The notes below the pieces were generated by a model. The model was not told where the DNA came from and did not search any database. It was given only the letters and a program-made list of their open reading frames with translations. A stretch of DNA of 63,356 nucleotides, filler included, from Hausera hauseri (lineage: Eukaryota): NCBI GenBank assembly GCA_046269625.1. It is 13 parts of 13 records of this genome, joined end to end, with 100 filler letters (N's around TTAATTAATTAA, not from the genome) between each part and the next. Parts side by side here need not be neighbours in the genome. Positions count along the whole stretch, not along the records: positions 20,254 to 24,326 come from JBJURY010780425.1; 12 more parts are not named here. One strand, 5' to 3'. Of the stretch, positions 1-63,356 are shown piece by piece. The position numbers were made by a program, and so were the translations under genes. How positions within the stretch are numbered: the stretch's first letter is position 1; each line of letters opens with the position of its first letter.

Positions 1-149
1 AATTATGTTCAATGTATACAACAGAACCGCTATATATATGTTATATATTGGGGTGGCCCTTATTCAACTCCCACTATATAACAATAATTACACTTGAAGT
101 TTTTAGTACCTTGGTGCAGGTAAGGTCTACCGTTATCGAATAGGCAGAA

Positions 150-774
150 TGTACCTTATGATTATTAGTTTAATCAGTAATGCGTGTACTCGCTTGCGGT
201 CCTGTGCAAAGAACGTTTATCAAATTCTCCTCTTAACTATATGAAGTGTAAGTACAGATTTTAAGCTTAGGGTAGTCAAATCGCTTTTAAGAAGCGAAGC
301 AAAACTATGAATAAATTTACTCAATAAAATTTATTAAACAACAATTACCAATCTTTCCAAATAATCACGGAAGCACAGTATCGAATGACTCTTTAATGTT
401 TCTACAGATTAATCCTTCTGATTTTATCAGCAAAACGGTCTCCCCAATGATTCTGTCGTCTCAAAACTTCTGTTTTACTCAGCTGTTCTCATCCTTTTAT
501 AATCTCGTCTTCGATAATTAATTTGTTTTTTTATTCCATTCAATTTTGTTATTCATAATACGGTTTTGCTTTTTATACATTATTTTTAATTATTATAAGC
601 TACAACCTACGATCAATTCTATTAACTCAATACGTTCAAATTTTTATTCAATAAATACAATATTCTATTCTGTACATACAACTAATTATGTACACGAATT
701 CATAAATACATGATACCTTTTATATTTATTTATGAGCTACGATATCTATCAGCTGTACTCTTAGCCATACTACA
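150..774 (-). repeat. 3' LTR of complex Ty3/gypsy element, copy A (left boundary approximate)
   Basis: On the minus strand the PPT AGGGAGGAGAGATGA is directly followed by TGTAG at 774. TATAAAAGGA lies at about 492-501 and AATAAA at about 330-335. Blocks are homologous to 23590-23720 and 23900-23911. A candidate TACA end lies at about 150. Confidence 0.7.
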
Positions 775-1140
775 TCATCTCTCCTCCCTGAACGGCACAT
801 TCTGATGTGCCAATTGCGTCAGAAGAGGTGACGCCTGTGCGTGGCAATCGTAATAAGTCTATACGTTGCCTTAGACTGGGTTCGGAGCTTGTACTTGCCT
901 GATTTCCTCGAGTACTTGTTTCTAATTCATAGCTGTAATTGGGTTTTATTCTTACTACTCTAGTATAGGTTCCATTGGAAAAATACTTCAAGTCTGTAGC
1001 TTCTGCTCTACAGACTGGACATGTAGTTTTGCCCTTATCTAATGTCCATTTTTCCAAGCAATCTCGACAATATTTATGTTGACAATCCGAATTATCCAAA
1101 ATCACAGCCTTGTTTGAGATTATCTTCGCACACTGGGAAT
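770..1140 (-). pseudogene. RING-HC (C3HC4) finger, C-terminal domain of the retroelement accessory ORF (frameshifted near 1100)
   Basis: (F)PVCEDNLKQ / VILDNSDCQHKYCRDCLEKWTLDKGKTTCPVCR gives the C-x-H-x2-C-x2-C...C-x2-C pattern. The stop codon is the TAG of the LTR start TGTAG. Confidence 0.8.
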
Positions 1141-1790
1141 TCTTTTTCCTCTTTTTCCCAATTTTCGTCGTCCAAATTGACTCTTATCGTAATCTCAATA
1201 GATTCTACTACCAATCCTTCTTCATCTTGATATAGATAGGCATATATTCTTTTTTGTTTCGGATTTATTGAACTCTTCTTGGGATGGCATCTCACGGGCA
1301 ATAGGATCCAATTGCTGATATCATCTTGATCTAAGTCGGGAATTTCACCAGTCGATCGGTATTTCTGATGTAGCTTCTTAAGTAATATCTTTACGGACTT
1401 GTCTACGGGAACTATGAGTTTACCATTTCTTTTTGATTGAAATATTGGGACAACGTATTTTCCTATCTTGGGATTCTCTCAGACATAAGTATTCTCTTAT
1501 AATTCCCTTGCGGGTATCAATTTGACGAAGAACATTGCTTCCTTAATTCTTTGTTGACTATAATACTCTGCAGTTACCAATATTCTCGGGTAATCCTTGG
1601 TGGTGGCGAAATGTACATTATCTGAGGAACCTTTCTTTCGTAATATGTTCACTTTCGTTATCTGTTCCTTTTGTTTACTTGATGGTCTCGTAGATTTCTC
1701 GGTTTCAGACGGCACTTGTGTTTTTGATGGTTTTTCTGTTTGTATTCTTGGGTCTTCTGTCTTCTTTAGTTTCGGGTCTTTATTATCTAA
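1092..1790 (-). pseudogene. Middle part of the accessory ORF (Lys/Ser/Thr-rich linker plus unknown domain), disrupted
   Basis: ORFs 1497..1715 and 1092..1301 are in the same frame, separated by two in-frame stops, and read on toward the RING motif. Confidence 0.55.
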
Positions 1791-3258
1791 TTTGTATCCT
1801 TCTTTTGGTCCTTTTTCTCCTTCTTTACTTTTTTCTTAAATAAATAATCGAAGAAGGAGGTTTTTCTTTTAGTTGTCTTCCCGATTTCGGTTTCTGAAGT
1901 TCTATCTTTTTCTTCTAGGTATTTTTTGGGGACCTCGGGTATCTTGAATATGTCACTCTTTCCAGTGGTTTTCGTAACTGATTTAACGCTATAACTTGTA
2001 CTTGGTTTTTCCTCTATTTGCTTTTTGCTATTCGATCTTCCGGAATTAATTTCTTGAATAGTCACTTGATAATTCCATTTTTGTGTGTTTTTGACATTTC
2101 TTGGGGGAGAATAGGGACGGAAATGTTTTCTGTATCGGCTATTTGATCCTTCTATTTTAGGAAATTTGCGTAGATTCTGGCCGGGATTACTTGGGATCCA
2201 TTTATGTTCCCATATTAATCCAGTATTTATGTCCATCAAGTATTGGGAACGTTGACTAGCAGTTAGTAGTCGACTTATTTTAATATGTTCTGCACTCATT
2301 GCTTCGATCAACAGCTTAAATCGGCCTTCCACGGTCGGGGGTAGATATCCTTTCCTTTCTTTTACCTTTATCTCCATTTGTTCTATCACTGTCGGTTGGC
2401 TTTCCACTTCTCTTATCCCGGCTATGTATGTAATGGGTATTTCTAAATTTTCTATAATCATTTCTACTTGGTAATCCACCATGATACAACCATACAGGAA
2501 ATATGTCACATCTTCTTGTAATAGCTTATTATCCTTTCCTAATATCAATTGTTCCCTTTTTAGTCCGATTACTTCCGCGTAAGTTTCCTTTACTTTTTTT
2601 CCCGGATTAATTATTTTTGCGTAGATTTCCATTCCGTTCGTTTCTCGTATCGATATTTCGATCGGAATATAGTTTCTCAGGTCCTCTTCTCCGTAGTTCA
2701 CTGCGACGATCCGGATGTTCCTTGCATCTGCTACCAATCTAAATGAATATAAGTGTACATCTTGTTTCTCTTCGGTGGGCCTTTGTCTAAATTCTAATGG
2801 TGGCAATGGAATGGTTGTTGTTTCTTCCTCGGTTATTTCAACCATTAGCTTCGCGGGTAAAGCAGCTATGCGAAATTCCAGCTCATAGTCGTGGTCGAGA
2901 AAATCTCTACTATTAAATACAAATGTGCTATATCGACTTTGTTTTCCTTGGAATGAGTCCCATTTTTGGTCTTTTAACCTGTAATAAATTACTCCGTCAG
3001 CTAAGTGTATGAATAATTTCTGTTCTTTGTCCGCTCTGTGCTAGGTGATCTGCCGTAAGGAGTATGTCTTTGCATTCTTATTTTCTCTCCATGCATATAA
3101 GTAGACAGCTCTAGCTTACCCAGGTTTGTCCTTGTAGTTCTGTGTTGATTTTTCTGTAAATACTTTTGAAATTTAGGATCAGGACGGTTACGTATTGTTG
3201 CGAAAATCAGTCGATACTAAGTCGGCTCATTTTCGTGTCGATCCGATTACTTGCTAAT
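1787..3258 (-). pseudogene. Accessory ORF with DEDD 3'-5' exonuclease-like (REX4/ISG20/REXO1) fold, copy A; open frame 1787..2845
   Basis: IVAVNYGEE..PIEISIRETNGMEIYAKIINPGKKVKETYAEVIGLKREQLILGK..LLQEDVTYFLYGCIMVDY follows the Rex4-type pattern VALDCE..VSIV..G..YDKYVKP...VTDY.T.VSGI..EDL..G....VQ.EV..LL.G.ILVGH. It is homologous to 62268..63335. Confidence 0.65.
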
Positions 3259-3356
3259 CTGAAGAAGAAAACATAAAGGTTAATCTTAAAACAAAGTATG
3301 GTCTTAAACCAAAACCAATTCTTTGTTTGATGACAGAATAATCTGATCTGTAATTG

Positions 3357-4780
3357 TCAGGTTATTTTATCATAGGGGTCTATAGGGTTTTCCCTCTCCC
3401 TTAATTCCCATTCTGTATTTTTAGGGCGTATACAATAATAATTTTTGGCAACTAACCGAACAATCGCTGTTAATAAAATGAGAAAAAATGTTGACGATAC
3501 AATAATGAATAGGATCGGTAATGTGGTTAACCCTAGTGGTACTTGTGTGGTAGTAGGAGTTGTGCTTTCATCTTCGATATTTTCATATACTGGTGATCCT
3601 GTGCGGATTTCGCCCAGGGTACGTATTGTAATTGTTTGGTTTTGCTAATTCTTTGCATGGTGTTCGGACTGTGGTTTTAGCAAATTACATTCCGTCTGAT
3701 AAGTATTTTTAAACAATGTTGCAATCTGATCATTGTATGTTGTTCGACAATTTATGTGTATATCATAATTTTGTTTTTCCTCCAAAAAGAACACAATTTT
3801 AATTCGATATGCCGAATATTTAACATGTATGCTTCCTAATTCTTTTTGAGATATCTTGCTCGATGTAACAGTTCGGTAGTAGGACTAACCTTAGTGGTTG
3901 ACTATTTGGTTGTGGTTTTCACTGAGATTTTCCAACTATTTTCTGGATAGTAAGTTTGTAATTGTATACTTGGTTTATTAGGTCACACCTCGTATAAATC
4001 AAATTTTATTTTGAACTCCTGGTTCACGGGTATTTTACAACATGGATGTTGCACACCTGCGCGAATAAAACAATACCCTATTTTCTGAGTCGGTCCCTCT
4101 GTTGCTTCGAAAGTAATACTAATTTTGCGACTGACAGTTAGCTTTGTCCGGACATCTACTTGGATGCATTTTTTTGCCTTGTTTACATATATTCTCCGGA
4201 TATTTTCGTATAATAATTTTATATCGGGGTCAGTGGATCGCAGCATTTTGTTAGGTTTTATTCCATGATGTCTGTTCCAAGCAGGGATGACTAATTGGAA
4301 CTGTGGCTTCGTCTCGATGTAAACTTCGGATGAGTCCGGTAGGTATAGGCGATAAGTGAGATTATAAGTGCGTCCGAAATCTATGTCGCAACACGGCGTA
4401 TAGTCTATAGGTTCAAAATCACAATTTGTAGCTTTTTGTGTTGTTACATCGTGTAAGACGATTTGAAATCTTTCGAAATCGTGGTGGGACCTCCAAGCCT
4501 TAAATCCGACACACACGGTGTCCGCCGAAAAATAATTAATTATCATTGATTGCAATGATTTAGTATCTTCTTGTCTTTGAATTTCTCTGACTGTTGGTTT
4601 CTTTTCCGTTTTAATAGTTTCCGATCTTGATCCACTCTTCCGAATTCCGTATACATCTCCTAGCGTAGATTCGTCGTACCACCATTAAGTTTGTGTTCTC
4701 GGAATAAAAGAAGCAATTAATGATAGAGCTAAAACGATATGAATGTATGATATTGGTCTAACAATTATTGAGTAAGTTTT
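3357..4780 (-). pseudogene. Env-position type I membrane protein (signal peptide, 2 Cys-rich domains, S/T linker, FN3, TM, YDKI tail), copy A, disrupted
   Basis: Hydrophobic IHIVLALSLIASF follows the integrase tail. ORF 3983..4555 has two C..C..CC units. TECNLLKPQS, the TM segment and the C-terminal DPYDKIT* match 61228..62169. Confidence 0.7.
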
Positions 4781-4789
4781 TATCTCGTG

Positions 4790-5965
4790 TTGGCGTAGAT
4801 TATAACGTTTATTGGGCCTTATCTCTGTCTTAACAACTCTTTGTACTGATACGACTTTTTCCTTTCCATTTTTGTTGATATATACTGTGGTTGGCGTAAC
4901 TCTGGTAACACTCGTACGGTCCTCTGCCTGTTCGAGTTAATTTTAATGAGGTGCCTTTCCTGGCTAGTGGGTAATGTACATAAACCCAATTTCCTTGTTC
5001 TAAATCATGCGGTTTCGCTTTCTTGTCATATTGCTTTTTAAACTGTTCTTGATATTCTTGGGATAATTCTTTGGCGATTTCCCAACATTTTCGCAATCGA
5101 GTTTGTAGCACTTCTGCAAAATTCTTTTCTAAATCTTCGGGATTGACTGTGTATGGCGTCATTCCTAAGTCTGTGGGCGGCACAGCTTTACGTCCATACA
5201 TCATGAAGAATGTGGTAAATATTGTCGCTGGATGTGGTGTGGTATTAACTGCAAATTGAGTTCCTTCTAGAAATTCATCTCAATCCTTTTGGTCCTTGGC
5301 TACTACTGTGGATAATATACGTATGACGGTTGCGTTCATTCGTTCGACCATTCCGTTACACTGAGGGTGATACGCGGTAGTTGTTAATCGTTCGATTTCG
5401 AATATCTTGCTGATTTTTTCGAATAATGCACTTGTGAAATTTCTTCCTCGATCTGTGAGTATCTGGTCTGGGGGTCCGTATCGGCAAATAATTCTTTTTA
5501 CTACGGCTTTTGCTAAGGTTTCTGCCTTTTGATCAATTAGCGATATCAACTCGACAAAATGATTTAATCGGTCGACACAAGTCAAGATATACTTATTGTT
5601 CTTGTGAGTCGTAGGAAGAGGGCCTACGATATCCATAGACATGGCTTGCACAGGTCTATCGGCACATTAATTGGTTTTAATTCGGCCATGTAGTTTTTCG
5701 TTTTCTTTTGATTAGTTGCACATACTTCACAGGCATTTACCCAATTTTTTACATCAGTATAGATACTAGAACAAAAGTTATTCTTTCTAATTCGTTATTC
5801 TAATATTCGTTATTCTTTCTAATGTTTTTATCCAGGACATGTGTCCGGCTAAGTACGAATCATGTTCCGACGTTAGCACTTCGGTTCGTAACCCTTTTGG
5901 AACAACCATCAATTTCCTTCCTTTTCGTTTGTAATATAAAATATCGCCATTGCTTTTGTCATTTA
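4790..5965 (-). mobile_element. Ty3/gypsy integrase, copy A, disrupted
   Basis: SMDIVGPLP, ILTDRGRNF and TTAYHPQCNGMVERMN form the DDE core; a GPY motif follows (RGPYE). Near-identical to 59937..60850. Confidence 0.92.
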
Positions 5966-9000: not shown

Positions 9001-10300
9001 GAGTGGAATTTTGTGTGGTAAATACAGATATGGCTGTCCACCGCAAAACGCTCGTCGTAATATATACAACCCAAAAGACATTTTTCTGCATTACTACGAA
9101 ATTTCTCGTGATAAAAACAAATCATTCGTCCGCCAGATTTGAAACGAAATAAGTGCCTGGAGAGGCTACGCTCGCGCGATGCACGAATCTCGCCTTGCCG
9201 ATACATAGACAGATTACTTAGTTGAGCCGTGATGGCGAAAATTGAATGCTGTAGAGTATCGTATTGTTTCTGCATTAATTGTAGTTGCTGTGCGAAAACA
9301 ATCGTGTCTGCGTGAAATGAGGTATGCGTGGTTGCTGTAGCTACGGGTTGTGAGTTGTTGGTCTGCAAGATTACGAAACTTTTATCAGCCAATAGGGAAA
9401 GTTTTTCGATCCCCGTTGAGTCGTCAACGACAGTAAGGATAGCTCTGATGGAAGTGGGTAAGGAGGACAGGAAATAACGACAAATTAAGTCCGCATTATT
9501 GGTGGGGGTAATGCCAAGAGCACTTAGGTGTGAAATAGAGGTCTGCAGAAAGTCAGAAGGTTTTTGATTGCTTATAGCATGTTCGTTAAAGTACTTCTGT
9601 ATTATATTATCAATCGATGGATCGGTAATATGAAGAACAGACTCATCAAGCATGTCATATGGTGTTGGCGAAGTAAGGATATCAGTAAGATTACTGATTT
9701 GATGTTTGATGTTAGCTGGGAGAAGAAGTAACAAGCTGTTGGCGCGCAAGAAAAAATCGGTAATATGATTGGCTTTTAGCCATTGTAAATGAAATTTTAT
9801 CCAAATGTGGCTTGAATTAGTTTTGTCAAGTAAGAAATCTGTGCAAGGAAGATTGAGAGAGGCAGATTGTGCAGAGTCAGCAGGACGACGACCGGATCTT
9901 GTTTTGGAGGAACTTTCAGTAGAAGAATCAGGATCCGAACCACCTCGGAGGTAAAAGTGAAGGGTGAGATGAATGATCAGAGAAACGAAGAAAGTCAGTT
10001 AGACGGATGTAGCACAGAACCATGATGCGACAAATAAAAATCGAAAGTGTGTAGGAAAGAGGATAGAGACATATAGAGGGTGTAAGCAATGTCCGTGTTA
10101 CTAGTGAGTATGGTAGAAGTATGTGTGTTATTTTTGAAAACAAAAAAGGAAAAGGGTTGAAAAGTAATGCCAGAGGCATGTTGTGGCGCACGAATTACAG
10201 ACGCGTCCAGGTTTCCGACCAGATGATGTTCGGGCTGCATAGCCGAAAGAGTAGTCGCCACAACCGATTTCTGATGGTCAGTGTTCATCGCAGACTGTTC
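6066..10300 (-). mobile_element. CsRn1/Kabuki-like Ty3/gypsy retrotransposon (LTR end, gag, PR, RT, RNase H, IN), decayed
   Basis: gag 8874..~9900 has CxxH..C..C knuckles. Motifs: PR FLIDSGATFS, RT MPFGLRNAAQTFQR and YVDDIL, RNase H TTDA and TDHKPL, IN VHLDLVGP. The LTR end ..GCGCCACA is at 10182. Confidence 0.9.
8874..9900 (-). CDS. Gag of CsRn1-like element with two CHCC knuckles
   Basis: CFYHEKFRSNAEKCLLGC and CIYHTKFHSLARSCVPGC; homologous to 58247..58804. Confidence 0.8.
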
Positions 10301-11718: not shown

Positions 11719-13352
11719 GTTTGGATTACCTCACCACATCATTTCAGACCAAGGCCCACAGTTCGAATTCAACCTGTTTAAAGCTCTTGTTAATCGATGG
11801 GAAATTAACCGCATTTACACGTCACCATATCATCCCCAATCGAATGGCCTTCTTGAACACTTTTACCGAACGATTAAAACGTCTCAAAATCCTTGCTGAG
11901 TCTAATTGCAGTTGGACTACATTCCATCCGTACGTTCTTCTTGGTTGGCGGAATACACCATCTAATTCTACAGGCTGTTCACCTGCAGAAGTATTGTTTG
12001 GGACTTCTATCAGATCATTATTCGAGCTGGCTGAGCTGGACAATATTCCTACAGACAAAACCATACGAGCGGCCCAGAGACACTTCATTGAGTTCAGCAA
12101 AGACTCATTTTGTAGATTATTACACGGAGATAAACCTTACATACCAGACGATTTATATACTGCCAAGTTCGTATGGCTAAAGAATCAGACGCCGTGTGGT
12201 TTTCAACCTCAGTATGCTAGCCATTATAAAGTAATTCGTTTACACTCTCACAACATCATTATTCTCAAGAACGACAAAGAAGTAACAGTCAACATCAATA
12301 ACGCTAAGCCGGCTTTCTTCATTGCCGATACATCTCCCATCGAAACCACTTCTCCGCCAACATCCTTACGCGACGCGCAGCAATCCAACAATTCACCTTC
12401 CATCTCTGCTCAATTTTTCAACCCACTTTCCCCTACGTTTTCTCCCAAGATTTCTACTTCAATTTTTTTCTGGCAGGTCATCTTCTTTTCCCCATCCGAT
12501 TTTGCACTTTCAAGCCTTTCCACACTTCTTTCATCCCCTGATAGCAACCTGTTTTCTCCTCTTACAATACTTCGTTCATCAAACACCACTTCGACTTCAC
12601 CAATCTCTCTATCTTTTTGCTCTCTTCCGTTTTGTCCCTCTTCGCCATCTTTTCTCTCTCTTTCTTTCTCGTTCCACACCTTCCTCATATTCGGCGCTCG
12701 CTTCCTCCCTCTCGCCTCACACAACGTTTTTTAGTCCTTTCATCTCCGCTTCGCAACTTCCTTCTCTTTCTACTCCTATCCCTATCTCTCTTCCTCTCTC
12801 TACTACTACCTTGGCTTCGTCCTCTACTTCTACCCTTTCACCTAAGACAATTTTAATTTCTACGCCAAATTTCGTCTCTCCTCTTTTATCCGGCACTACA
12901 CCTCTTTTAAGTCCTTTGTCTTCTAACACTCTCGAACGCCTTCAACCGTCCATCTTCAACAATCTCTCTTCCTCCTTCACCTTCTTCTCCTCATTCTAAC
13001 ACGTCTTCGCACGACACAGCACTCACAACAAAATCGGACAATTTTTTCCCAAACTTCAACCTCTGCATGCAAACACACAGCATAAAGACAAAACACGCAA
13101 AGTCACATTTAGCAAGTATAGCAGAGAAAAATCAGTAGAAGGCACCCAACGTCTTGTTCACAATAAGACCAGCTGACACAGACACTTTTTCGTCTGACAA
13201 CTTTTGTTTCTGTCTTTTACTCTATAGTTTTCGCTTTGCCACGGGAGGGGGTGATGTGGTGCCCACAAGGGCGGTGCTCTTTGTCCTATTTGGTCGGGCA
13301 CAGCCGGGCGTCCGTTGCCGCCGTGTTGGATCCATAGTTTGGTCCGATCTTC
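11719..13352 (+). mobile_element. CsRn1-like element 3' end: integrase C-half, pyrimidine-rich (Ser/Pro/Thr) tail, PPT and truncated LTR (LTR starts 13255)
   Basis: PYVLLGWRNTPSNSTGCSPAEVLFG; the PPT GGGAGGGGGTGA is followed by TGTGGTGCCCACA; homologous to 15842-17100. Confidence 0.85.
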
Positions 13353-15841: not shown

Positions 15842-18800
15842 ATCGAGCCCGACTATGAATCCGACAAGGCGGCAATGGACGTCCGGCCGCGTCCGACCAA
15901 ATAGGCCAAAGGGCACTGACCGCCGCGGGCACCACATCACCTCCCGTGGCAAAGTGAAATCTATAAAGAACAACACAGACGGAAAGAAAAAAATCGTTAA
16001 ACGAAAAGTGCCTGTGTCAATTGGTCTTAGTGTGAACAAGACGTTGGGTGCCTTCTACTGATTTTCCCTGCTATACTTGATAAATGTGACTCTGCGTGTT
16101 TTGTCTGGATGCGGTGTGTTTGCTTGCAGAGGTTGAAGTTGAGGAAAAAATTGTCAGATTTTGTTGTATGTGTTGTGTCGTGCAAAGCCAAGTCAGAAGG
16201 AATAGAAAAAGATTGTGAAGGACGAAGAGAGATTGTTGGAGACGGATGGCTAAAGGTATTTAAAAGAGTGTTAGAAGACGAAGGAGTGACAAAAGGTGAA
16301 GTGATGGATGAAGGAGGAGAGAGGAAAATTGAAGTAGAAGTTGGAATTGTATTAGGTGAAAGAGTAGAAGTAGAAAATTAGGCAGAGGGAGTGGTACAGA
16401 AAGTAAGAGAAATAGGAATAGAAGTAGAAGGTGTGGAAAATGATGAAGCAGAATTAGGAGCAAAAGGAGGAGGTGAAACTGGTGAAGCAACAGATAAAGG
16501 AACAGCAGGAAGTGTAGGAGTGAGAAAAGGGGTTGCCTTGTCGATTGGTAAAGTATCGTCGACAAAGAAAGCGGGTTTTAGGTTGGTAACATGTACCGTA
16601 AGTTCTTTGCCGTTTTTAGAGATAATAGCATTATGCAAATGCAACTGTATAAGTTTATAGGGCCCCAGATACCACGGCTGAAAACCGCACGGTGTTTGAT
16701 TTTTTAGCCATACGAATTTTGCTGAGTAAATGTGTTTTTTCTTTGTGAAGTAATATGCAGAACGAATCTTTGCTGACCGTAACGAAGTGATTTTGCGCCT
16801 CCCTTATCGTTTTATCTGTAGGAGTGTCGTCTAGGACATCTAGTTTGAACAATGATCGTACAAGAGCTCGGAATAAGGCTTCAGTAGGTGAGCATCCTGT
16901 AGAATTAGACGGCATGTTCCACCAGCCAAGCAGAACAAACGGAAGAAGATTCGTCCAACTAGTGTTGGACTCTGTAATGATTCTTATTGACGTTTTCAAT
17001 GTTTGGTGGAAGCGTTGTAGGATGCCATTCGATTGGAGATAGTAAGGTGTAGTATGTATGTGACGGATCCCCAATCGGTTAACAAGAGATTTGAACAGGT
17101 TAGATTCAAACTGTGGACCCTGGTCCGTGATGATGAAGCAAGGTGATTCAAACCTGCTAATCCATGTACGAATGAAAACGTCAGCTATGGTATCGGTTTT
17201 CGTGCTCCTCAGAGGGATAGCTTTTGGCCATCGCGAGGAACGCTCCATCATGGTGAGAATGAATTGATGACCGTTACCTAGAGGAAGAGGGCCAACGATG
17301 TCGATATGCACGGACTCGAAACGCGATGTGCAGGTAAAGTGGAACAGTGGTGGCTTTAAATGCTTCGTTGTTTTGTATTTTTGGCAAGCCACACATTTCT
17401 TAACCCATGCCTGCACATCAGAACGCATTGACGGCCAAATTACTTGTCAATGGAGTAAACGAAAAATGGCTTTAGCACTAGGGTGGTGTAACGAATGTAT
17501 GCTATTAAATGCTTGTTTTTGCAATGATGGTGCGAGAATTATTATGGAATAACCTGGTTTGAAGGTGTCTAAAGCCACGTTGTCAACGACTTTGCAATAG
17601 TTGAAAGAATTAAGCATGTCTTAAGGTGGCCAGTTCTGTTGAATTTGAGCTTGCGTAAAAATCGGTGAAAAATTAATCGAACTAACCGACCTAGATAAAA
17701 AATCGGCAATTAAATTATTAACCCCATTATTATGTTTTATTTCGAAGTTAAATGTCGACAAGTATGATATCTGTCGTTCTTGGCGTGTGGAAGGATGTTT
17801 TATAGCCATGATGTTAAGTAAGGTTTTGTGATCGGATTATATAGTAAAATGCCTAGCGACAAGTATGTGGGAGAAATGCTTTAAAGCAAGAACGATGGTC
17901 AATAACTCTCGATCGAACGTTGAATATCTGGTTTCAGGGGATGTTAGCTTGCGGGAGAAAAATCCTTGCGGTTTATTTTCTCCTTTGTAGATCTGGTGGA
18001 GTACAGCATTTACCGCAGTGGTTGAAGCGTCTGTAGTAAGGATGAGTTCTGCATCAGGTTTGGAGAAAGCGAGAATGTCGACGGTCTTAATTTCTTCGCG
18101 TAACTTATCAAATTTGTCTACCAACTCAGGTGTCCACTGGATTGGCTGATGTTTTTGCAACCGCTTAAGTGTGCAAATGGTGCTGTCAATTCGGAGGAAT
18201 ATGGTACATATTTAAGTACAAAGTGTAGTGTACCAAGGAAGCTGCGCATTTCGGTGGTCGTACGTAGTAACTGGATAGTTTTAAGGGGTTCAACTCGGTC
18301 TGGTTGAGGAGAGTGGTCGTCTGGTGAAATAATGTGGCCTAAAAAGTTTATGCATCTTTTGAAAAAATGGCATTTGTCGAAACTGACTTGGAAATTATGG
18401 TGGTGAATGCGTTAGAATATTGCGCGAAGATGTTCCTCGTGTTGTTTGACCAAAAATGAAATTATCAGAATACCATCAATGTAAGGGTGCGCAAACGGAA
18501 AATCTGAGAGAATTGAGTCAACATGTCACTGAAATGTCTGTGCGGCATTTCTCAAACCGAAAGGCATAAACATGGTACTCGTAGAGGCCAAAAGGAGTAG
18601 TGGCAGCAGTTTTTTCTGTCTTCGGGTGCCACAGGTATTTGGTGGTATGCTTTAGCCAAATCGATGGTCGAATAAATGTTAGTTGAATTAAGGAGATGCA
18701 GGATGTCCTTGATGAGTGGCAAGGGGTACGCATCCATGACTATCAAGTTGTTTAACTGGCGGTAGTCACCGCATGGTCTAAAAGTAGCGTCCTTTTTTGT

Positions 18801-20153
18801 ACGACGTGCAAAGATGACGACCAAGGAGATTTTGAACAGCGTACAATTCCGGAGCGTTCTAGTTCAAAAAATTCGGCTTCTACAGCCTGTCTACGATGAG
18901 GTGACAGTAGTCGTACCTTTTGGCGTATTGGTCGTTGATGCTGTGTAGTTATGTGATGCACAGTGCTGTTTGTAAGGGTAAACGAATGATCTTTTTTAAG
19001 TACGCGTGGACATGATGTAGTAACGAATTGCTCTAAAGTTATATGCAATTGTGATAGATTCGGTGGTTATGGTGAAGCAGGTTGAGAATTGGCGTGTGCG
19101 ATTTGTGAATTGTTTTGTGATGTGTAGTCAAGTGGTATTTGGAGTAAGATGGTCGGATGGCAGGACCGCAATTAATGACAATGATCCTCGATTGAATATC
19201 AATATAATTATTTAAAAATTTACGAATTGAATTATTGTTATGGAAATTCGAAGTATTTATTGATTTTCCCAAAATTCACCTCCATATCTCGATCGACTGC
19301 ACGGTAGTCGAAATGCTATTGTCATGCTCAGTAATGCTGCCAGTGATGCCGCTCCTCAGACATCGTTGACACAGTCAACCAATAAATTATAATGTGATAG
19401 AAAATCGAACCCTAGAATTGCCGTCTGGACGTTAGCAACTGTGAACGTCCAGTGAAAAGGTGAAGGAAATTTTGGTAAGATGAAAGATAATTTAGCCATG
19501 CCAGAAATGTGCAGCGGTTGACATGCAGCGGTGTATAAGGGCTTAATTCTGAATAGTGAATTTTGCACAGGAAAGGTTTGTGGTAATAGAGAAATTGCTG
19601 TACCTCTATCGATGAGGAAATCAACGGATTGCGTTGTAGGAACGTGATTGCAGCCTTTAGAGTAAAGACAGTAAAAGAAGCTTGTCGGTATTCAGAAAGT
19701 GAAGCAGTGCCTTTGCCAGAGTTTGGCGTGACTTCCGGCGGCAAACTTAGTTTTTTTGGAAAGGTGAACTAGGACGACTATTAGAAGAAAAGGAAGCACG
19801 TCTGTTGTTCGTATCTGGTTTCAAAGTTCAGCCTGGAATGCATTTACGAGCTTTGTATTTAAACTTTGCGTGGTAGATGCAAATAACGATGTCTGAAGAA
19901 AACTTTTATTATAAAATTTGCACCCTAGGCACCATTTCTTTGCACTTTTATTGAATCTGCTGTGATAGTAGCAGATAGACGACCGTGTAGGCGATGGTTA
20001 ACGGTTTCCCAACGCAGAATGGGTGCGGTCAGCAACAAAATCCCTTCGCCGGGACAGGGAAAGTTCGTTTAATCTGTTGTTTATATTGTTAATTGTTGCT
20101 TGTAGTGCTGTATTTTCGGCACGTAACTGATTTAGTTGTTGCTCTATTGATGT
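15842..20153 (-). mobile_element. CsRn1-like Ty3/gypsy element (gag C-end to 3' LTR start at 15936), decayed
   Basis: PR, RT (SKSPWSSSLHVV, FRPCGDYRQLN), RNase H (TTDASTT, YSTFDRELL), IN (VHIDIVGPLP, ITDQGPQFES), PPT then TGTGGTGCCC. AAAAAAACTAA at the gag end. Confidence 0.9.
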
Positions 20154-20253: not shown

Positions 20254-21220
20254 TGTACTGCTGGATCAAGTATTTTATAGGTATACTTTAATTCTTTTTT
20301 AGGCCTTTTCTCTGAAATGGCGGAATTTGTGACAGTACTCACTTGAGTAATTGGTTTTATTGTTGCTTCAAGTGAAAATTTCCATCTGATCTTCCGGACA
20401 GTATCTTCCAGAGAAAATATTCGATTCGTTAGGTCGGAGTTCATAAATGTCGAAATATATTTTGTACTTATAATCTACCAGTATTTTACAACATGGATTC
20501 GATATTGTGGACCCAATGCCACAATATTCTGGTAGGGGAGCTAATTCATATAATTTATTAAATCGAACGGAAGTTGCTTTGTCGTCCGTCAACAACCTTA
20601 TGGTTTTTATCTGGATACATTTCTTTTTCTTATTCTTAGAAATTCCGATTATGTTCTCGTCTAACATTCGTTTTTGTGGATTGGTTGATTGGATTATTTC
20701 ATCAAGTTTTACTTGGAAACGTCGATCCATCGAAAGTGTGATTAATTGAGATTGTGGATCCACTTCGGCGTAGACATCATTTAAATCTGGCAAATACAAA
20801 TGGTAAGTGCGAATATATGAATCTCCATAGTTTACGTCACAGCATTGTGTATAATCGCCCGGTTCGAAATTACAATTGATCTTTGCTTTCCTTGTTATAT
20901 CATGTAGTATAACCTGAAACTTCTGAAATCACGATTTGTTTTGTTTGTTCTAAATCCAACACATTTTCAGATGTAAAGTAATAGGCCTTCATCGTTTGTA
21001 ACAACTTGGTGTCCTCTTGTTTCATGATTTATTCGGCAGTTAATTTCTTTCCCTTTTCTACCGTTTTGTTTTAGTCCACTTATACGAATTCCATATACAT
21101 CTAGCATAGTTTTGTGACCCACCATAGGACCCTAATTTTTGCTAAATATGCAGCAATTAGTGATTGTACTAAAACTGTGTGTACGTAGGATGAGTCGAGC
21201 AATTATTGAAGGTTTTGTTT
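20254..21220 (-). pseudogene. Env-position Cys-rich/FN3 membrane protein, copy B (truncated by gap)
   Basis: NCNFEPGDYTQCCDVNYGDSY..YHLYLPD and KKCIQIKT..EYCGIG..NPCCKILVDYKYKIYFDIYE. Confidence 0.7.
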
Positions 21221-21359
21221 TTCTGCTATTTTGATTTTGACGCAGGTTGTAGCGTTTGTTTGGTCTTATTTGCGTCTTAACCACTCTTTTAACCTTCAGA
21301 ACTTTACCATTTTTGTTAATATAAGCTGTAATTGTTGTTGTTCTAGTGATCTCGATGAG

Positions 21360-22255
21360 GTATCCTGGAATTTATCATCCGTTATTCCTTTTACGAGATT
21401 GGTTCCTGTAAATTTGTTAGGGGCGGCAGTTATACCTCCATTCGATAGGCTTACCCAATTGGTTTCAATACATCTGAACGTAGATTATCCTAAGCTAGCT
21501 TTACATTCTTTTAAGATTGTTGGTTGAGTTGCCTTAACTAACAAGACTCTAATAAGTGGCATAGCTAGTAGAGGAGTATCCTGGTACAAAACCAGGAGTT
21601 CTTGTACACAACGTTTTTCCTCGACATTAATTGGTACATCTCGCCCCACATTCATAGGTTAACAAGACTTCGCCTGTGACTCAGCCGAAAATTTCTCTCA
21701 TTGGAATTATTGTCATGCTAATTCAGGGTTGGCGTAAATTAGAGCTAATTTTGTTCTCATAATTTCCATATTTAATTTGCAGTCGTTCGTTATCATGTGA
21801 TACAGTTCGGTTATTCCGTCTCGTTTTTTGTAGTAGAAATAATCGTCTCTATTTTTCAAGTAATCTTCGATTTGTATATCCTGCGTTTCCTATTTATATG
21901 TCTGTCCATTTATTTCGGTTTCCGCTACGAAAAATGCCTCGTAATTTGTGGCATACATTACTACTTCGCAACGCGAGAGCATTTCTTTATAAATTTTAAT
22001 TCAGGTCAGTGATTAGTACAGTTGGTGTAGAGTGCTCGGCAACGTCTTCTCGTGTCCTGGCGCTACTATCTACTTTATTCACATCATTTACCAGTAGTTT
22101 CATTGACCTTCAGCTCCTTAATTTTGATGAAATTACAATCATTTCCCGAGGGTGGTTCCCATATTATGATTGAACTTCTAAAAGCACAAGTTCCATCTTG
22201 TAAATGACATTTTTGGTTTTCAATATATAGTTTGGTGATGCCGTCTTCGTTTATA
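21360..22255 (-). pseudogene. Chuvirus-type (class III-like) viral glycoprotein remnant
   Basis: Manual minus-strand translation through stops and frameshifts: CHLQDGTCAFRSSIIIWEPPSGNDC; MYATNYEAFFV; YLKNRDDYFYY..ITELY..NDCKLN..LALIYANPELA; FG*VTGEVLLTYEC; RCVQELLVLYQD..MPLIRVL..EC..F..WV. Motif order matches Jingchuvirales-like G proteins. Confidence 0.65.
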
Positions 22256-22259
22256 GGTG

Positions 22260-23158
22260 ATTTGGACCTATCAATTTTCTATTATTACTCTGGTTCGTTG
22301 ATCCTTGTCTATTGTTCGCCTTATATCTATATTCATTGTTTTCGTTTTTGTCATCGATTTCCATAATCCGAACTTCTATAGCTGTTTTGGTTGGTATCTG
22401 AATTATAGTTTGGCTTATTACTTGAATTATTCATGTTCCGATTATTTCCAAATTTCGATTATCGTAATTTCTATTATTGTTATTGAACCTTCTAACATCT
22501 CAGCTACGGTTATCGTTTCGATCATTATTTCTAATTTCTGTCATTTTGTCTGGCATATCTATCTAATGCCATTTCTAAGTCTTGAGCTAACTACAAGGTA
22601 TTGTCAAAGTTTTCTGGTCGAGCTAAAATTAACTATTTCGCTAGGTCTCTAGACCGTATACAATTTATCGATTGTGTCGTCATCATAACGTCTATATCAG
22701 GAATTACTTTCTCTGCAGCTTCGCGTTCGGTTTCATTTTTAGCTTTAGTTACATTCGCTCTTCTTAACATACTTATATAACTATTTGTCAATTTCTTCAG
22801 TGCAAATGCAAACTGGGTGACTGATTTGCCCTTCTCTTGCATCCTGTTTTGAAAATCTATGAATTTCTGTTGAGTTACCGTGGGCAATAATTTACGGTTT
22901 AAGGCTCCTACTAGTGACGGCCAAGATTTTTTTCTCGTCGCTCGTAAGTTTTGTATAGGCATTAGCAGCCAAATTCTTTAAAAAAGGTGATAAATGTTTT
23001 ATCGTTTGTTCGGGTTCAGGTCCGGCACCTTCTGTATGCAGCTTATATGTTCTCAAAAATTCGTTTAATCCGTCCGGATACCCAATATATGCCGGCAGAT
23101 TCAAAGAATTGACTGTAAAAATGTCCAGTTTCGGCACTACTACGGGATTTTGTGCCAT
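22260..23158 (-). pseudogene. Gag (capsid-like plus Asn/Arg-rich linker) of complex gypsy element, frameshifted
   Basis: LPAYIG..LNEFLRTYKL..LSPFLKNLAANAY..W..L..ALN..F.NRMQEKGKSVTQFAFALKKL fits a retrotransposon gag pattern. Confidence 0.75.
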
Positions 23159-23514
23159 TGTATTAATTTCGTTACCTAAGTCTTTTATTATTTTTACGAA
23201 CTTTATTTTTCATATGAGTAATTTTAAATTTATTAGTTTGCTCGATAGCAGTTAAATTTAAGTTAGGTAAATTTACTCTAGTCTCAGAAAGTTAACGTTT
23301 ATCTGGAGTTTTATTACGTCTATAAATATTTCTGCGCTTTTGGCATACAAGTAAATTTCCTTAGCCATTTAGATTAAGGGTTTCGTTTGATTTAGACCTA
23401 TCAATATTCGTTCTTTGTTTTTAACCTTTAATTAATTCTTGTTCACTTATACCAAAGATTTTGTTAGCGAATCTTAATTAATTTAGTTAATGTAAGAGGC
23501 ACTGATCGCCGGTA

Positions 23515-24322
23515 TGTAAATAGTTAACTGTCGAAGTCAAGTTTAGCAAGGCACAAACTGTCCTTGGGCCCAAATCGTCTCTCAGCTATGACAAATGTTC
23601 TCGCCTTAACTATGAATTTTAAAATTGATTTTAAACTTAGGGTTGTCATATTACCTTTAAGAGGCAATGCAAAACTATAAGACAGTTTTAATAACGACAA
23701 AATATATTGAACGATAAATAAACAACCGCACAGCGTCGAATGATATCAACAACTTCGAATGAAGACGATTCTTTCAATAAGTTCGCAATTTGGTTCGTTT
23801 GGATTCTATCACGATTTTCCGGATCAGCTTTCTTTAAGAACTCAGTCGAATTTCACTAATCGGTTTAACCAGATTTTCTTCCTCTTTACTCTTTAGCTCG
23901 TTCCTTTTATACTGTCTTATTCTGTGAATCTTTCTTAGTATTTAATTGTGAGAAATTTATCAATGGGAATTAATTCATTATTCTAAAATTTTACTAATTT
24001 CTTGTGAAAGTTTTGCATTTAACTCGTTGAGAAAATTTGTTTTATTATTTAATCAAACACACTGCTATTCTTCTATGGTTAATTTTGTTGAGAATTCTTG
24101 TAATTTGACTTAAACACATTTTCCATTGTTCCATAAGAAATTCTACAGCTAGAGATTAGAGTTCACTATACAATTCTATATTTTAGAATTATGTACAATT
24201 AATTGACGACTTTTTGTACCAAATGTAAAATATCAATCCACATTACAGTATATTTGTCAATTTCATTTGTTCTCAAGTTTTATATTTTCTAATAGTAGAG
24301 GAAAAATGAGAATTCTAATACA
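23515..24322 (-). repeat. 5' LTR of complex gypsy copy B (upstream boundary approximate)
   Basis: Shares TATAAAAGGA (about 23902-23911), the hairpin block and the CTTAGGGT block with LTR A. Ends TTTACA at 23515, followed by a possible degenerate tRNA-Arg PBS (CGGCGATC). Confidence 0.6.
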
Positions 24323-25085
24323 GAAANNNNNNNNNNNNNNNNNNNNNNNNNNNNNNNNNNNNNNNNNNNNTTAATTAATTAANNNNNNNNNNNNNNNNNN
24401 NNNNNNNNNNNNNNNNNNNNNNNNNNAAAATTTTTTATGACGTAATTGGGCAAATCCGCCAAATAACGGTTCCGGCACTTTCTTGCTACAGGAGCAGATA
24501 TTTTGACCAAAAATAAAATTTTTTGTTAAAATGTTTAATACATCGCATTAAGCATATATAGAGCTAAAACGCGTTCATGATTAAAGACTGATAAAAGCTA
24601 ATTACTTTTCTTGAATGCTTACTTGTCTTAACCGCAATCTATTAAATTGTAATTTTTGTACAATGAAATTCCTTTACATCAATGGATAACAACAATTATT
24701 ACATATTTTTTTGATAAACAAGAAATTTTTTTTGTTCTCCTTCCTTTACTGAGTAGCGTTTTTAAGTAATTCCATTAAATATATTCCTCGCTTCTTTTTC
24801 GCCGATAATTGACTATCTGACGAATTACTTTTATCCGAGCTCATTAAATTTAAATAGCATCGTCTATTGTTTCAGTATAATCTAATTCGATTTCTTTACA
24901 TGCTACTTCAATTTCCGTTTTGTGCTTTTGTGATTTAAATTCGACAAAAAATATTTCGAACTAAAATGTTCTTCAAAATGTAACAATTATTTCGTTGGTA
25001 GATAGTATTTCCACGCATCCATACTTAAGGATTTTTACCGTGACAAATAGCTTTCCAACTAATATTCTCATCAATCATAATAAAA

Positions 25086-56680: not shown

Positions 56681-57121
56681 TTTCTTGGGTTTTGCTTCGA
56701 AAATACCGGATGCGAAAAAAATCTTACATTCGTTCAAACATCATTCTTAAATTTATAACGGAAGTCTCATTCATAACGATTCATCCAGTGAATATTCGGT
56801 ATCAGACCCTATTAGGTCGAAAGTGTTTATGGGGCAGAGATGGATGAAACAATCAGTCTCATTATGTTGCTGAAAATTTGGTGTCAGAGTTAGAATACAT
56901 CACCGCAGTACTACACCGGAGTGCACCAACTTTTCTTTGCAGTTACAGTCCATGGATTGTTCCCTCTCCGGCAGGAACCTTTTAATCTATTTTACTTTAT
57001 GGTATGAATATTTTAATTGTTGTTTTGCTGTTATATTTTTTAACAAACCGATTTATTACTATTCGAATATGCGCATTTTTAATCGTACCCTTATTCGCTT
57101 TTACATAGGGCTATTTTTCAG

Positions 57122-57850: not shown

Positions 57851-57869
57851 CATCTTCCATCACAAAGAC

Positions 57870-58946: not shown

Positions 58947-59046
58947 NNNNNNNNNNNNNNNNNNNNNNNNNNNNNNNNNNNNNNNNNNNNTTAATTAATT
59001 AANNNNNNNNNNNNNNNNNNNNNNNNNNNNNNNNNNNNNNNNNNNN

Positions 59047-60850
59047 TTAACAAGCGAACCTGTTTTGCGATATCCAGATTTTAACTTACCTTTCATAATT
59101 AAGACCGACGCCAGTAAGGAAGGTATTGGATACGAATTAGCGCAGAAAAGAGAAGATGAAGAATTAGAACATCCGATTGCTTATGGAGGACGTTCCTTAA
59201 AGAAGGCTGAGAAAAATTATTCTGTTACGGAATTAGAGACTCTAGCGGTAAAGGAATAACTTAGACATTTTAACGTTTATGTTTACGGGCAGAGGATCAT
59301 AATTGTAACTGACCATAAGGCCGTTACGACTTTAAAAGGTAGAGCCAATAATCCGACGTGCAGACTTAATAGATGGATCGAAGAAATTTCCAGATATAAT
59401 ATTGAATTTCAGTACAAGCTAGGAAATAAACATGTCGACGCTGACGCACTATCGAGATTAAAGGTTAAAACAAGCGCAATCACCGTAATAAAGAAAAGTC
59501 AACTTGAGGAAATAATAGATCGCCATCGCGCGTTAACGACCGATAGAGCAATCAAGATTTCAGTGGAACATAGAAATGATAAAGTTATCCAGCAGATTAT
59601 AGAATTTGCTACAAGGGATATCATACCAAAAGCGCGACAGTTGAAGAAACATCTGCATAGACATGGACATAAATACTGCGTCGTAAATGACGGAGACAGA
59701 AAAGCCATCTTATACTACGAACGAAAAGGAAAAAAATTATTAGTTATCCCAAGAAGTCTACGAACCGAAGTACTGATGTCAGAACATGATTCGTACTTAG
59801 CCGGACACATGTCTTGGAAGAAAACTTTAGAAAAAATAATGAACAAATATATTTGGCCTAGTATCTATATCGATGTAAGAAATTGGGTAAGCGCCTGTAA
59901 GTATGCGCGACTAAACAGAAGAAAACGAAAAACTATATGGCCGAATTAAAATCAATCAATGTACCACATAGACCCATGCAGGCCATGTCGATGGATATAG
60001 TAGGACCTCTTCCTATAACGTACAAGAACAATAGATATATTTTAACGTGCATCGATCGATTAACTCATTTTGTCGAGTTGATAGCATTAATCGATCAAAA
60101 GGCGGAATCCTTGGCAGAAGTTGTAGTAAGGAGAATTATTTGCCGTTACGGACCACCCGACCAAATATTAACGGATAGAGGAAGAAATTTTACCAGTGAA
60201 TTATTTGAGAAAATCACTAAGATATTTGAAATCGAACGATTAACGACTACTGCATATCATCCTCAATGCAATGGGATGGTCGAACGGATGAATGCTACAG
60301 TTATGCGTATACTGTCAACAGTAGTGGCTAAGGATCAAAAGGATTGGGACGAGTTTTTGGAAGGTACTCAATTTGCCATTAACACCACGCCACATCCAGC
60401 AACGGGATTTACACCATTCTTTATGATGTATGGACGTGAATCAGTGTTGCCTACAGACTTAGGAATGACGCCATACACAGTTGATCCGGAAGATTTAGAA
60501 CAGAATTTCGCAGAAGTGTTAAAAACGCGATTAAAAAGGTGTTGGGAAATCGCCAAGGAACTATCTCAAGAATACCCAGAGTAATTCAAGAAACAATATG
60601 ATAAGAAAGCGAAACCGCACAATATAGAGCAAGGGAATTGGGTTTATATACACTATCCAGTAGCCAAAAAAGGCACCTCATTGAAATTAACTCGTACGGG
60701 TAGAGGACCGTATGAGGTCATACGAGTGACGCCAACCACAGTATATATCAACAAGAATGGAAACGAAGAGGTTGTATCAGTACAGAGGGTCGTCAAGACG
60801 GAAATACGACCCAACAAACGTTACAATTTGCGCCAACGAAAAGTGAAAAC
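59047..60850 (+). mobile_element. Complex Ty3/gypsy element copy L: RNase H plus integrase
   Basis: IIKTDASKEGIG, EKNYSVTELE, TDHK, HDSYLAGH..C, SMDIVGPLP, LTDRGRNF, HPQCNGMVERMN and RGPYEV. Confidence 0.93.
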
Positions 60851-62169
60851 TTCGTCGATAGTCACTAGACCGATATCATATGTTCAGATAATCTTAGCCC
60901 TATCATTAATTGCCTCATATATACCTACGGTGAAATCAAGCGCTAAACAAAGGGATATCCGGAATTTACAGACACTCAGAGTACGCGATATAGATTGGAA
61001 AAAGCCATGTGCATGGTTCGAACTGGACAATCCTATTCAAAGACACATAGGGATTCAGATAACCCTTATAACTACTGGGAATGAAATGAGTATATGATTT
61101 TCCATACAGGCACCACAGGAGATGTTGCAATCTAGATTTCGGAAAAGTCTATAGATATAGCTTTCAACTACTTTATTCCTATAAGTTTGGCGTTCAAGCC
61201 GACATAGCCTCCGAGCTCATAATACAGATGCCACAACAAAAGGAGGCAAGTCAAGCAAAAACGGACGAAATAATTCGAAGCACTGATCCGATTAACAGAA
61301 TCTTAGATAACAACATTGTTAGAATTCACAAGGATTTGAAAAACCAATGCGTTTGGATCGAGACTAAATTTGCAGTACCAGAAAATAAGGAAATCTCAGT
61401 CCAGTTTATCCCATTGAACATCTCTATTCCTAGACCAGCGTACTGCTCATTGGCGAAGAAACGTCCTACCGTATGCTGCACAATACAATTAAGACAAAAG
61501 TACCAACTACGATTTGATTTGTACGATACCTATCCGGGTGAACGGAGTGTTTCCCTAAGAGGATATCGTCCAAAGGACAGAGTATGGGAGCTCTTACGTC
61601 CGCCCACGACAGAAAAACCATCCACGACGCCGAGTACTATCCGCAGTACTACGATTATTGCTACGAACGGGATACTAGGAGGCATTCCTATTAAATATTC
61701 AGTATATCGATCTAAGATTGTGTTCTTTGTAGAAGAGAAACAGAACTACGATATATACATAAGTTGCCGGACAAAGTATAATAATCAAGTGGTGACATTA
61801 TTTAAAAATACTTATCAAACAGAGTGTAATTTATTAAAACCACAAACCGAATATATAGTCCAAATATGCGCGGAGAATAAGCAAAATCAGACCATTACAC
61901 TGCGAACCTTAGAGGAGATTCGTGCAGAATCCCATGCATATGAGGATATAGATGAGCAGATTACAACTCAAGTCACCACACAGGCACCAATAGGAGTAAC
62001 TGTAATACCAATCGTATCTATCACGGTACTGTCAGCGATTGTTCTCATTATATTAATTGCGATTTTTCGATTAGTCACCAAAAACTGTTATTTTAAGCGA
62101 CACGAAAATTCGGAATGGGAACTAAGGGAGTTGGGAACCTATGTAGACCCATATGATAAAATAACCTGA
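60850..62169 (+). CDS. Env-position type I membrane protein (SP, 2 Cys-rich domains, S/T stalk, FN3, TM, YDKI), copy L; one lesion at about 61095
   Basis: SP VQIILALSLIASYIPTVKS is in frame with the integrase tail. RCCNLDFGKVY; CVW..YC..VCC..YQLRFDLY; FN3 signature LKPQTEYIVQICAEN; TM IPIVSITVLSAIVLIILIAIF. Confidence 0.78.
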
Positions 62170-62240
62170 TATTACAGAGCAGGTTATTCTGTCATCAAAC
62201 AAAAAATTGGTTTTGGTTCAAAACAATCCTTTGTTTTAGA

Positions 62241-62266
62241 ATTAAACTTTATTTCTTTTTCTTCAG
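62241..62266 (+). promoter_or_regulatory. Putative splice acceptor for the accessory ORF (counterpart at 3259-3285, minus strand)
   Basis: TTAAACTTTATTTCTTTTTCTTCAG here and TTAACCTTTATGTTTTCTTCTTCAG in copy A; the open frame begins right after the AG. Confidence 0.6.
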
Positions 62267-62267
62267 A

Positions 62268-63356
62268 TTGGTAAGTAACCAGACGCTAATGGATTCTAGC
62301 CGACATAGGATCGACGCAGGAGAAAAGACGAGCCGAATTAGAGTTGACACAGAAAATGATACCCAAAACGCTACGAGTCGACTTAGCATCGACGAATTCT
62401 TACAGAAAAACGTAACCATACGAATTCCCAATTCAAAGGCTATATACAGACAGATCAATAATGAATTACAGGGAAAAAATATTGTCCAATATGGCAGAGT
62501 CAGCGAAATCCCAAATGGTCTAAAGGGAATGACCGAGGAAAACCGGACAGTATATTTATACGCATGGAGAGAAAACAAAGACGCAAGAGTATATCCCTTT
62601 AAGCAAATCGCTCAATATCGAACAGTCGAGCAACAGAGAGTATACGTACATCTAGCCGACGGAGAAATATACTATCGGTTGAAAGAACAAAAATGGGATT
62701 CCTTCCAAGGAAGACAAAGTCGGTTCAGTACGTTCGTGTTCAATAGTAAGGACTTCAAGGATAATGAATTAGAGTTTCGCATAGTTGCCCTACCAGTCAA
62801 ATTGATGATCGAAACAACCGAAGAAGAACCAATACGTACAATACTACCCCCTATAAAATTTAGACAAAGGCCTACAGAACTAGAGCAAAAAAACCACCTA
62901 CATTCCTTTAGACTGGTGGCAGACGACCGAAATATCCGAGTTGTAGCAGTAAATTACTGGGAGGGAGAAGAAGATTATATTCCAATCGAAATATCCATCC
63001 GGGAAGAAAACGGAGTCGAAATTTATTTGAAAATTATTACTCCAAGGAAAAAGATACTGGAAACTCACGCAGAAGTCACTTGGATTAGAAGAGACCAATT
63101 GAGTCAAGGAAAGAACTTCAAATTAGTACAACAATAAGTGGCACAATGTCTCTACGGGTACGTCCTAGTGGGGTATCAAGTAGAGAGAATAATGAAAAAA
63201 TTAGATATACCGATAGAACATTTAGCTGGAATAAGAGAAATAGAATTCCACCCAACCGTTACGAAACAAATGCAGATCAAAGACAAAGAAAGAAGGGGCC
63301 ATATTCTATTAACCACAGAAGTCGGTTTAAGCTAATGATAGAAGCCATGACCGGGG
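62268..63356 (+). pseudogene. Accessory ORF with DEDD exonuclease-like fold, copy L (in-frame stops at 63135 and 63333; runs off window)
   Basis: VVAVNYWEG..PIEISIREENGVEIYLKIITP..ETHAEVTWIRRDQL.QG..LVQQ*VAQCLYGYVLVGY; homologous to 1787..2845. Confidence 0.7.

Follow-up and report, generated by a model that had tools for sequence, protein, structure and literature searches.

A chuvirus/gB-type glycoprotein remnant in a decayed LTR-element copy of Hausera hauseri, probably the element's own env

Layout of the element copy

The window, a stretch of 63,356 nucleotides from the genome assembly of Hausera hauseri (GCA_046269625.1), consists of about 13 separate contigs joined by 12 linkers of the form N44-TTAATTAATTAA-N44 (a stop-codon spacer) and holds two additional N10 gaps; contigs lying across an N-linker are not genomic neighbours. 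One of them, at 20254-24326, carries on its minus strand a decayed copy of an LTR element. Along this one strand, an LTR-like end is followed by gag (23158-22255), a remnant of an envelope glycoprotein gene (env, 22248-21344), the tail of an integrase from 21353, a signal-like segment and the start of a membrane protein, termed the FN3 protein below; of pol, the integrase tail alone remains. Two other contigs of the window hold related elements that we call sisters (Table 1). About 300 degraded glycoprotein codons on the sense strand of the element, lying between a gag that ends in ..IDRSKSP and an integrase tail, had been described in the original prediction, and we found the motifs in their place, the gag end in frame with the first env piece and the integrase tail beginning at about 21353.

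Table 1. Features of the element copy and of its two sisters in the window.
Feature	Position	Strand	Characteristics
5' LTR-like region	23592..24097	-	aligns with the 3' LTR region of a sister (contig 1-5965, 701-221)
Decayed gag capsid region	22540..23158	-	spread over two frames, with an ATG at 23158; Retrotrans_gag misses its cut-off (E 0.067)
Asn/Arg-rich gag tail ending in RSKSP	22255..22539	-	from translation; first deletion junction near 22255-22240
Env remnant, piece A	22054..22248	-	profile positions 176-241; shares the frame of the gag tail; 4 stops close to its end
Env remnant, piece B	21716..21994	-	YATNY, KNRDDY, central helix with Cys; 1 stop; within the 112.6-bit match
Env remnant, piece C	21603..21758	-	GEV..Y.C, in a different frame; overlaps B and D; a frame change at either end
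Env remnant, piece D	21344..21655	-	CVQEL, P..RVL, C, W; reaches profile position 483; 1 stop
Last integrase codons (after the GPY motif) and hydrophobic signal-like segment	21140..21353	-	64% identical in nucleotides to each sister (E 2e-36 and 5e-17)
N-terminal part (beta-sandwich) of the membrane protein that follows the integrase	20368..20928	-	31% to 61090-62166, 43% to 3986-4684
Sister element, 3' half	1..5965	-	integrase (rve E 1e-15), FN3/TM protein, ORF of no Pfam family, RING ORF (E 3e-7), PPT, 3' LTR
Second sister	59047..63356	+	RNase H, integrase, signal-like segment, two beta-sandwich domains (FN3 fold), TM, ORF of no Pfam family

The LTR-like alignment reaches a local score of 106, compared with 58 for the best of 200 shuffles, and its core is 73% identical over 126 nt (E 5e-17). 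The ends given for this region are approximate, and the element's own 3' end lies off the contig. By eye, no tRNA primer site was recognised in this copy, and the window contains no tRNA genes. A profile made from four gag-env proteins finds the capsid region of Table 1 as the sole gag in the window under E 10 (iE 6e-4 and 0.011). Its first piece is 28% identical to the gag of the protein P0015 (pairwise E 3e-5), in which a similar Asn-rich tail with RS.SP motifs also lies ahead of env, and the gag tail continues in frame into env across the first junction (junction 1). The second junction (junction 2), near 21360-21353, leads into the integrase tail and the signal-like segment, which is hydrophobic in the matching stretch of the sister as well. 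The contig ends ahead of the FN3 motif and the transmembrane segment (TM).

The glycoprotein remnant and its relatives

The env remnant comprises about 300 minus-strand codons in three frames and represents the middle half of a glycoprotein of the chuvirus/gB type (PF24664). It carries CHLQDGTC..SSIIIW.....C, YATNY and YLKNRDDYFY, then NDCKLN within a long helix, CVQELLV, PLIRVL...C and W, with GEV...Y.C in another frame. With the main frame as query, X being written at stops, phmmer was run exhaustively against 1.84 billion proteins and returned 31 matches (best E 1.3e-16), all of which match PF24664, the Monjiviricetes fusion glycoprotein family, 28 of them above the Pfam cut-off. A profile of length 643 built from 18 relatives gave 112.6 bits on 21994-21344 against 5.5 bits for the best of 300 control shuffles, a score that is partly circular since the relatives were found with that same piece. 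Piece A was absent from the phmmer query, and its 15.9 bits (iE 1e-6) are thus independent support; piece C adds 5.7 bits (iE 0.001). The three matches are collinear over profile positions 176-483 of 643, and the motifs are far beyond chance. About 176 N-terminal and 154-168 C-terminal residues of env are missing and no TM is present, so that the remnant, without either anchor, is a defective derivative that makes no working fusogen.

Searched alone, the main frame of the remnant matched nothing in Pfam at E<=1, and the remnant had no phmmer match in the PDB. A word-indexed search for longer proteins produced 218 candidates with 0 at E<=0.01, a profile search for named viral G produced two matches, both to unnamed proteins, and an IMG/VR scan with the remnant produced six pattern matches with no relative among them. 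The predicted model of the main frame (mean pLDDT 71, pTM 0.35), which includes one wrong-frame stretch, has a central helix of 47 residues (55-101). Its best fold matches in BFVD are to chu-like and related glycoproteins (best E 7e-5), and the top 22 rows are glycoproteins of negative-strand RNA viruses or unnamed proteins, the identity to viral G being 10-21%. Foldseek against the PDB gave nothing at E<=0.001 for this model (CMV gB at E 7.8), and the VIA wide search matched a generic long helix alone (Z<=5.9). The profile of relatives, searched against the PDB, hit herpesvirus gB alone, in 26 of 26 rows and weakly (best E 0.012), and the profile stretch matching piece B aligns with herpes gB. 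The chuvirus-type G named by the original prediction is upheld by the 31 PF24664 matches, the collinear profile match and the chu-like folds; a match to chuviral G and class III fusogens is present through PF24664 and, weakly, through herpes gB.

Eleven of the 31 env matches carry a retroviral protease or more of pol, and env lies upstream of the protease in every one of the eleven; P0005, P0007, P0017 and P0020 join env, protease, reverse transcriptase (RT), RNase H and integrase in a single ORF. Over the remnant, identity to the 12 pol-fused rows is 0.31-0.23 (best 0.31, 0.30 and 0.29), and such rows occupy five of the top six places. It is 0.21 to the stand-alone P0028, which fits the viral profile best, and 21-23% to the stand-alone clade P0024/32/33/34; the KNRDD motif is common to the remnant and the stand-alone proteins P0024 and P0034. 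The env tree, from which 11 of 33 rows were excluded as short, does not place the remnant. P0005 (HBK71150.1), a gag-env-pol-FN3/TM polyprotein of 2627 aa, is filed at NCBI under 'Flavobacteriaceae bacterium' and is likely animal DNA binned into a bacterial genome. P0155 is an env-pol polyprotein of 4844 aa, a Burro-like size, with several protease-like repeats, ankyrin, C2H2 and a terminal FN3-motif/TM module, and P0022, with Bcl-2 ahead of env, also has a Burro-like look.

Two sources describe elements of comparable layout: PMC6431247, a review by Arkhipova and Yushenova, and PMC13524379, by Chary and Hayashi in eLife. Planarian Burro elements hold an in-frame env between gag and pol that matches mononegavirus fusion glycoproteins, within a single ORF of ~5,000 aa carrying Bcl-2, BIR and ankyrin cargo (PMC6431247). 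The present copy resembles these Burro/GYPSM1 giant gypsy elements in that its env stands between gag and what is left of pol and in the presence of accessory domains. It differs in that no Bcl-2, BIR, MATH or ankyrin cargo occurs in what remains of this contig, from which most of the coding region is deleted, and in that its extra ORFs sit after the integrase. A gag-env-pol layout with a gB-type env is described for errantiviruses of Platyhelminthes, Nematoda and Bryozoa, the GAG-ENV-POL elements being non-monophyletic (PMC13524379). The HSV/gB-type members of that group have, like this copy, a gB-type env following gag, and the Schmidtea env rows of the supplement resemble by eye our top matches P0004-P0007 and P0022. 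In contrast to them, the present copy is broken, without both env ends and nearly all of pol, and the remnant is about 30% identical to its nearest envs; the sisters moreover carry, past the integrase, an FN3/TM protein, an ORF without a Pfam family and a RING ORF, and the word 'fibronectin' occurs zero times in the main text of that paper.

Anakin, a BEL/Pao element of mosquitoes with which the locus had been compared, is likewise an LTR element carrying the same glycoprotein superfamily, and its defective copies are common (PMC7642597). This comparison fails at pol, where RT_RNaseH, Integrase_H2C2, rve and a GPY tail are found in the sisters and where their RNase H and integrase match gypsy-type polyproteins, not BEL/Pao; an Anakin-type element was rejected on that ground. 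Endogenized Jingchuvirales glycoproteins offer another parallel, a PF24664-type G fragment near gypsy fragments in an animal genome (PMC10084718), whereas here the remnant comes closest to retroelement polyproteins and is flanked by genes of the element in collinear order. A direct Jingchuvirales insertion was also rejected, as the remnant is closest to pol-fused envs and lies where the element would have its env; the env tree does not place it.

The sister elements and their second membrane protein

The two sisters are 80% alike in integrase, and their accessory regions share 25% protein identity. In the sister, the FN3 protein comprises a TM and a predicted pair of beta-sandwich domains; its low-confidence model (mean pLDDT 47) finds in VIA its best match in human fibronectin FN3 (Z 7.9, rmsd 2.5 over 82 residues). 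Three gag-env-pol relatives, P0005, P0007 and P0155, resemble the sister in that their integrase is followed by a hydrophobic segment, by the motif C..L.P.T.Y.I and by a TM. The motif is missing from the P0017 tail and from all 120 other integrase-bearing proteins, a count for which the motif was picked once the alignments were known and in which many of the 120 stop at the integrase. The FN3 tails have little sequence in common (blastp E 0.006 at best; none by phmmer). Among the proteins compared, the integrase tail of the sister scores highest on P0155 and P0007. A quick integrase tree, with 7 of 126 rows excluded as short, places the sisters on a long branch of their own, outside the starred (95) clade of five env-bearing rows. 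Env was found in 0/120 integrase homologues and in none of 22 distant loci (30-45%) from a metagenome scan with the sister's integrase. Both sister contigs start inside RNase H or integrase, and no contig of the window joins env to the protease or RT of the family.

Beyond the FN3/TM ORF, both sisters carry a conserved ORF of no Pfam family (770-3040, minus strand; 62160-63137, plus strand), 66% identical between them, and within 770-3040 (minus) the RING-finger ORF lies directly ahead of the PPT and the 3' LTR. Just past the FN3/TM ORF, a conserved pyrimidine tract ending in CAG is seen in both sisters (62246-62285, plus strand; about 3284-3240, minus strand), and 4 nt past the CAG stands a donor-like GTAAGT in one and GCAAGT in the other. 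Judged by these sequences, the acceptor-like and donor-like sites may serve spliced accessory ORFs.

Origin and meaning of the arrangement

The stretch is contained (0.66 of its words) in one public run, here called X1, which was the sole run found, with no RNA run listed; X1 may be the sample behind the window and is thus not independent evidence. Its contigs aligned to the stretch number 2571, of which 97 do so at >=99%. A 407-nt contig (record 3, 20994-21400) bridges junction 2 between env and integrase with 0 mismatches and more than 31 letters on each side, while junction 1 between gag and env is bridged by none of the 8 records listed, and record 5, a related X1 contig, leaves the alignment at 22238, near that junction. 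The contigs of this run bear out one of the two joins that the original prediction proposed to verify and, in the listed records, leave the gag/env one unbridged. Sites in env and in gag alike are covered by dozens of diverged X1 contigs, and an env-bearing family is thus very likely present in the organism. No intact env-bearing copy of the family was seen among the sequences examined. Contigs with 0 mismatches to this copy are at a low depth of 4-8; summed over contigs, depth reaches the thousands across most of gag and env and is 14-77 across the FN3 part, which is about a hundredfold lower. Among the best 40 of 711 sites, 34 were used and 2 of these dropped for an unsure frame, and 27 of the 32 sites differing between the relatives and this copy fall at first or second codon positions, a pattern as would be expected of a decaying copy among conserved relatives.

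We consider it probable that the segment is native to the element, an env standing where a Ty3/gypsy element of the gag-env-pol-(FN3) type has it, and that this copy arose by two internal deletions and then decayed. Every piece stands in gag-env-pol-FN3 order, and an internal double-deletion derivative is the best reading. Both halves are tied to one clade by the LTR-like end, which matches the 3' LTR of a sister that bears FN3. The resemblance of the gag to the gags of gag-env proteins also counts for a native env. On the opposite side stand the lack of a window contig joining env to the family's protease, the quick integrase tree, in which the sisters do not group with the env-bearing rows, the 0/120 and 0/22 counts for env, the barely alike FN3 tails and the depth contrast.

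The intact parent would have been a Ty3/gypsy element with gag, env, pol and the FN3 membrane protein in this order. Compared with complete relatives, ~370 codons are missing at junction 1, between gag and env, and about 3.8-7.7 kb at junction 2, from mid-env to the end of the integrase; they may have been lost through a jump of the reverse transcriptase, or through later illegitimate recombination after integration. In active relatives, by analogy with PMC13524379, the polyprotein would thread env through the membrane between gag and protease, and cutting by the protease would yield a trimeric class III fusogen, the second, FN3-bearing membrane protein following the integrase. The original prediction had G replacing pol through a template switch with a co-packaged RNA, from a sister element bearing G or from a virus. 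Replacement is not borne out, env lying natively between gag and protease in the 11 pol-bearing relatives, nor is the template switch supported, as the gene order corresponds to two internal deletions of a gag-env-pol element (PMC6431247, PMC13524379); the fold was correctly named and its origin wrongly explained.

An unlikely variant in which env would still be native is a recombinant of two related gag-env-pol subfamilies, with RT leaving one RNA in mid-env and resuming at the integrase tail of a co-packaged relative. The difference in depth between gag/env and the FN3 part is consistent with this, as are an integrase tail and an LTR that are 64% and 73% like sisters themselves 80% alike in integrase. 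However, divergence of the accessory regions is fast, with 25% protein identity left even between the sisters, and this would lower the depth at the 80% threshold, and the LTR-like end and the integrase tail both match the same sister.

That a gypsy-FN3 element without env received, in the place of pol, a copy of G from a chuvirus or from an unrelated element carrying it seems to us very improbable. The fold matches to chu-like and other negative-strand RNA virus glycoproteins, env trees that do not place the remnant, an integrase tree in which the sisters do not group with env-bearing elements, and the sharing of KNRDD with P0024 and P0034 could be read in this way; however, the nearest sequences are pol-fused envs, the gag is of the gag-env type, the stand-alone clade is more distant at 21-23%, and the insertion would have had to fall exactly at the native env slot of a known layout. 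We likewise give little credence to the reverse transcription of a subgenomic RNA from which a complex element had spliced out both gaps as introns. Junction 1 keeps the gag frame into env, for which the odds are one in three, and the acceptor-like site after the TM ORF is kept in both sisters, so that the family may indeed splice. The joins, however, cut env in mid-ectodomain and give no sensible product, junction 2 shifts the frame, and the low depth of the 0-mismatch contigs gives no sign of a recurrent spliced form. A chimera of the repeat-rich short-read assembly, to be kept in mind for a 4-kb contig of a high-copy family with junction 1 unbridged in the listed records and with X1 as its possible source, is highly unlikely given the 407-nt contig that crosses junction 2 without a difference and a gene order collinear with known elements.

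On the reading of a native env with two deletions, the locus itself is a dead, deleted copy of little weight; it is of use as a bridge that joins an LTR, a gag and a gB-type env to the sisters that bear FN3 and RING and whose contigs are without their 5' halves; through this link the sisters are probably enveloped. The FN3 protein had been expected to accompany or to have replaced a true fusogen, and accompaniment is likely; P0005, P0007 and P0155 carry both env and a post-integrase FN3-motif/TM module. It is possible, though we hold it only tentatively, that the parent family is a retrovirus-like element with a gB-type fusogen between gag and pol, a separate tandem-FN3 protein for attachment or receptor mimicry after the integrase, and spliced accessory ORFs, one of them RING. 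If true, this would parallel, in a Ty3/gypsy element, the pairs of fusogen and attachment protein of herpes- and paramyxoviruses. The gag-env-pol layout is already published, and the point of interest that remains is the pairing of fusogen and FN3, which was not found in the literature searched. How invertebrate env-bearing retrotransposons choose their cells is elusive outside Drosophila (PMC13524379), and an FN3 protein that works with the fusogen would offer a handle on this choice.

The rest of the window holds several other kinds of sequence. Decayed ORFs at 42003-44899 (minus strand) look by eye like an element bearing DNA polymerase B, with no Pfam match at E<=0.001. A second gypsy family, env-less, is found at 6066-10000, 15842-20153 and 45293-47340 (minus strand) and at 11719-13340 and 58109-58950 (plus strand); its gag has C-x2-H-x9-C-x3-C, presumably the gag motif of the CsRn1 clade. 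Long uninterrupted host-gene-like ORFs occur at 39174-39959 and 48443-49219 (minus strand) and at 56874-58070 (plus strand), two of them adjoining gypsy sequence, and resemble a NOT2/3/5 C-terminal domain, ankyrin and armadillo/importin-alpha-like proteins.
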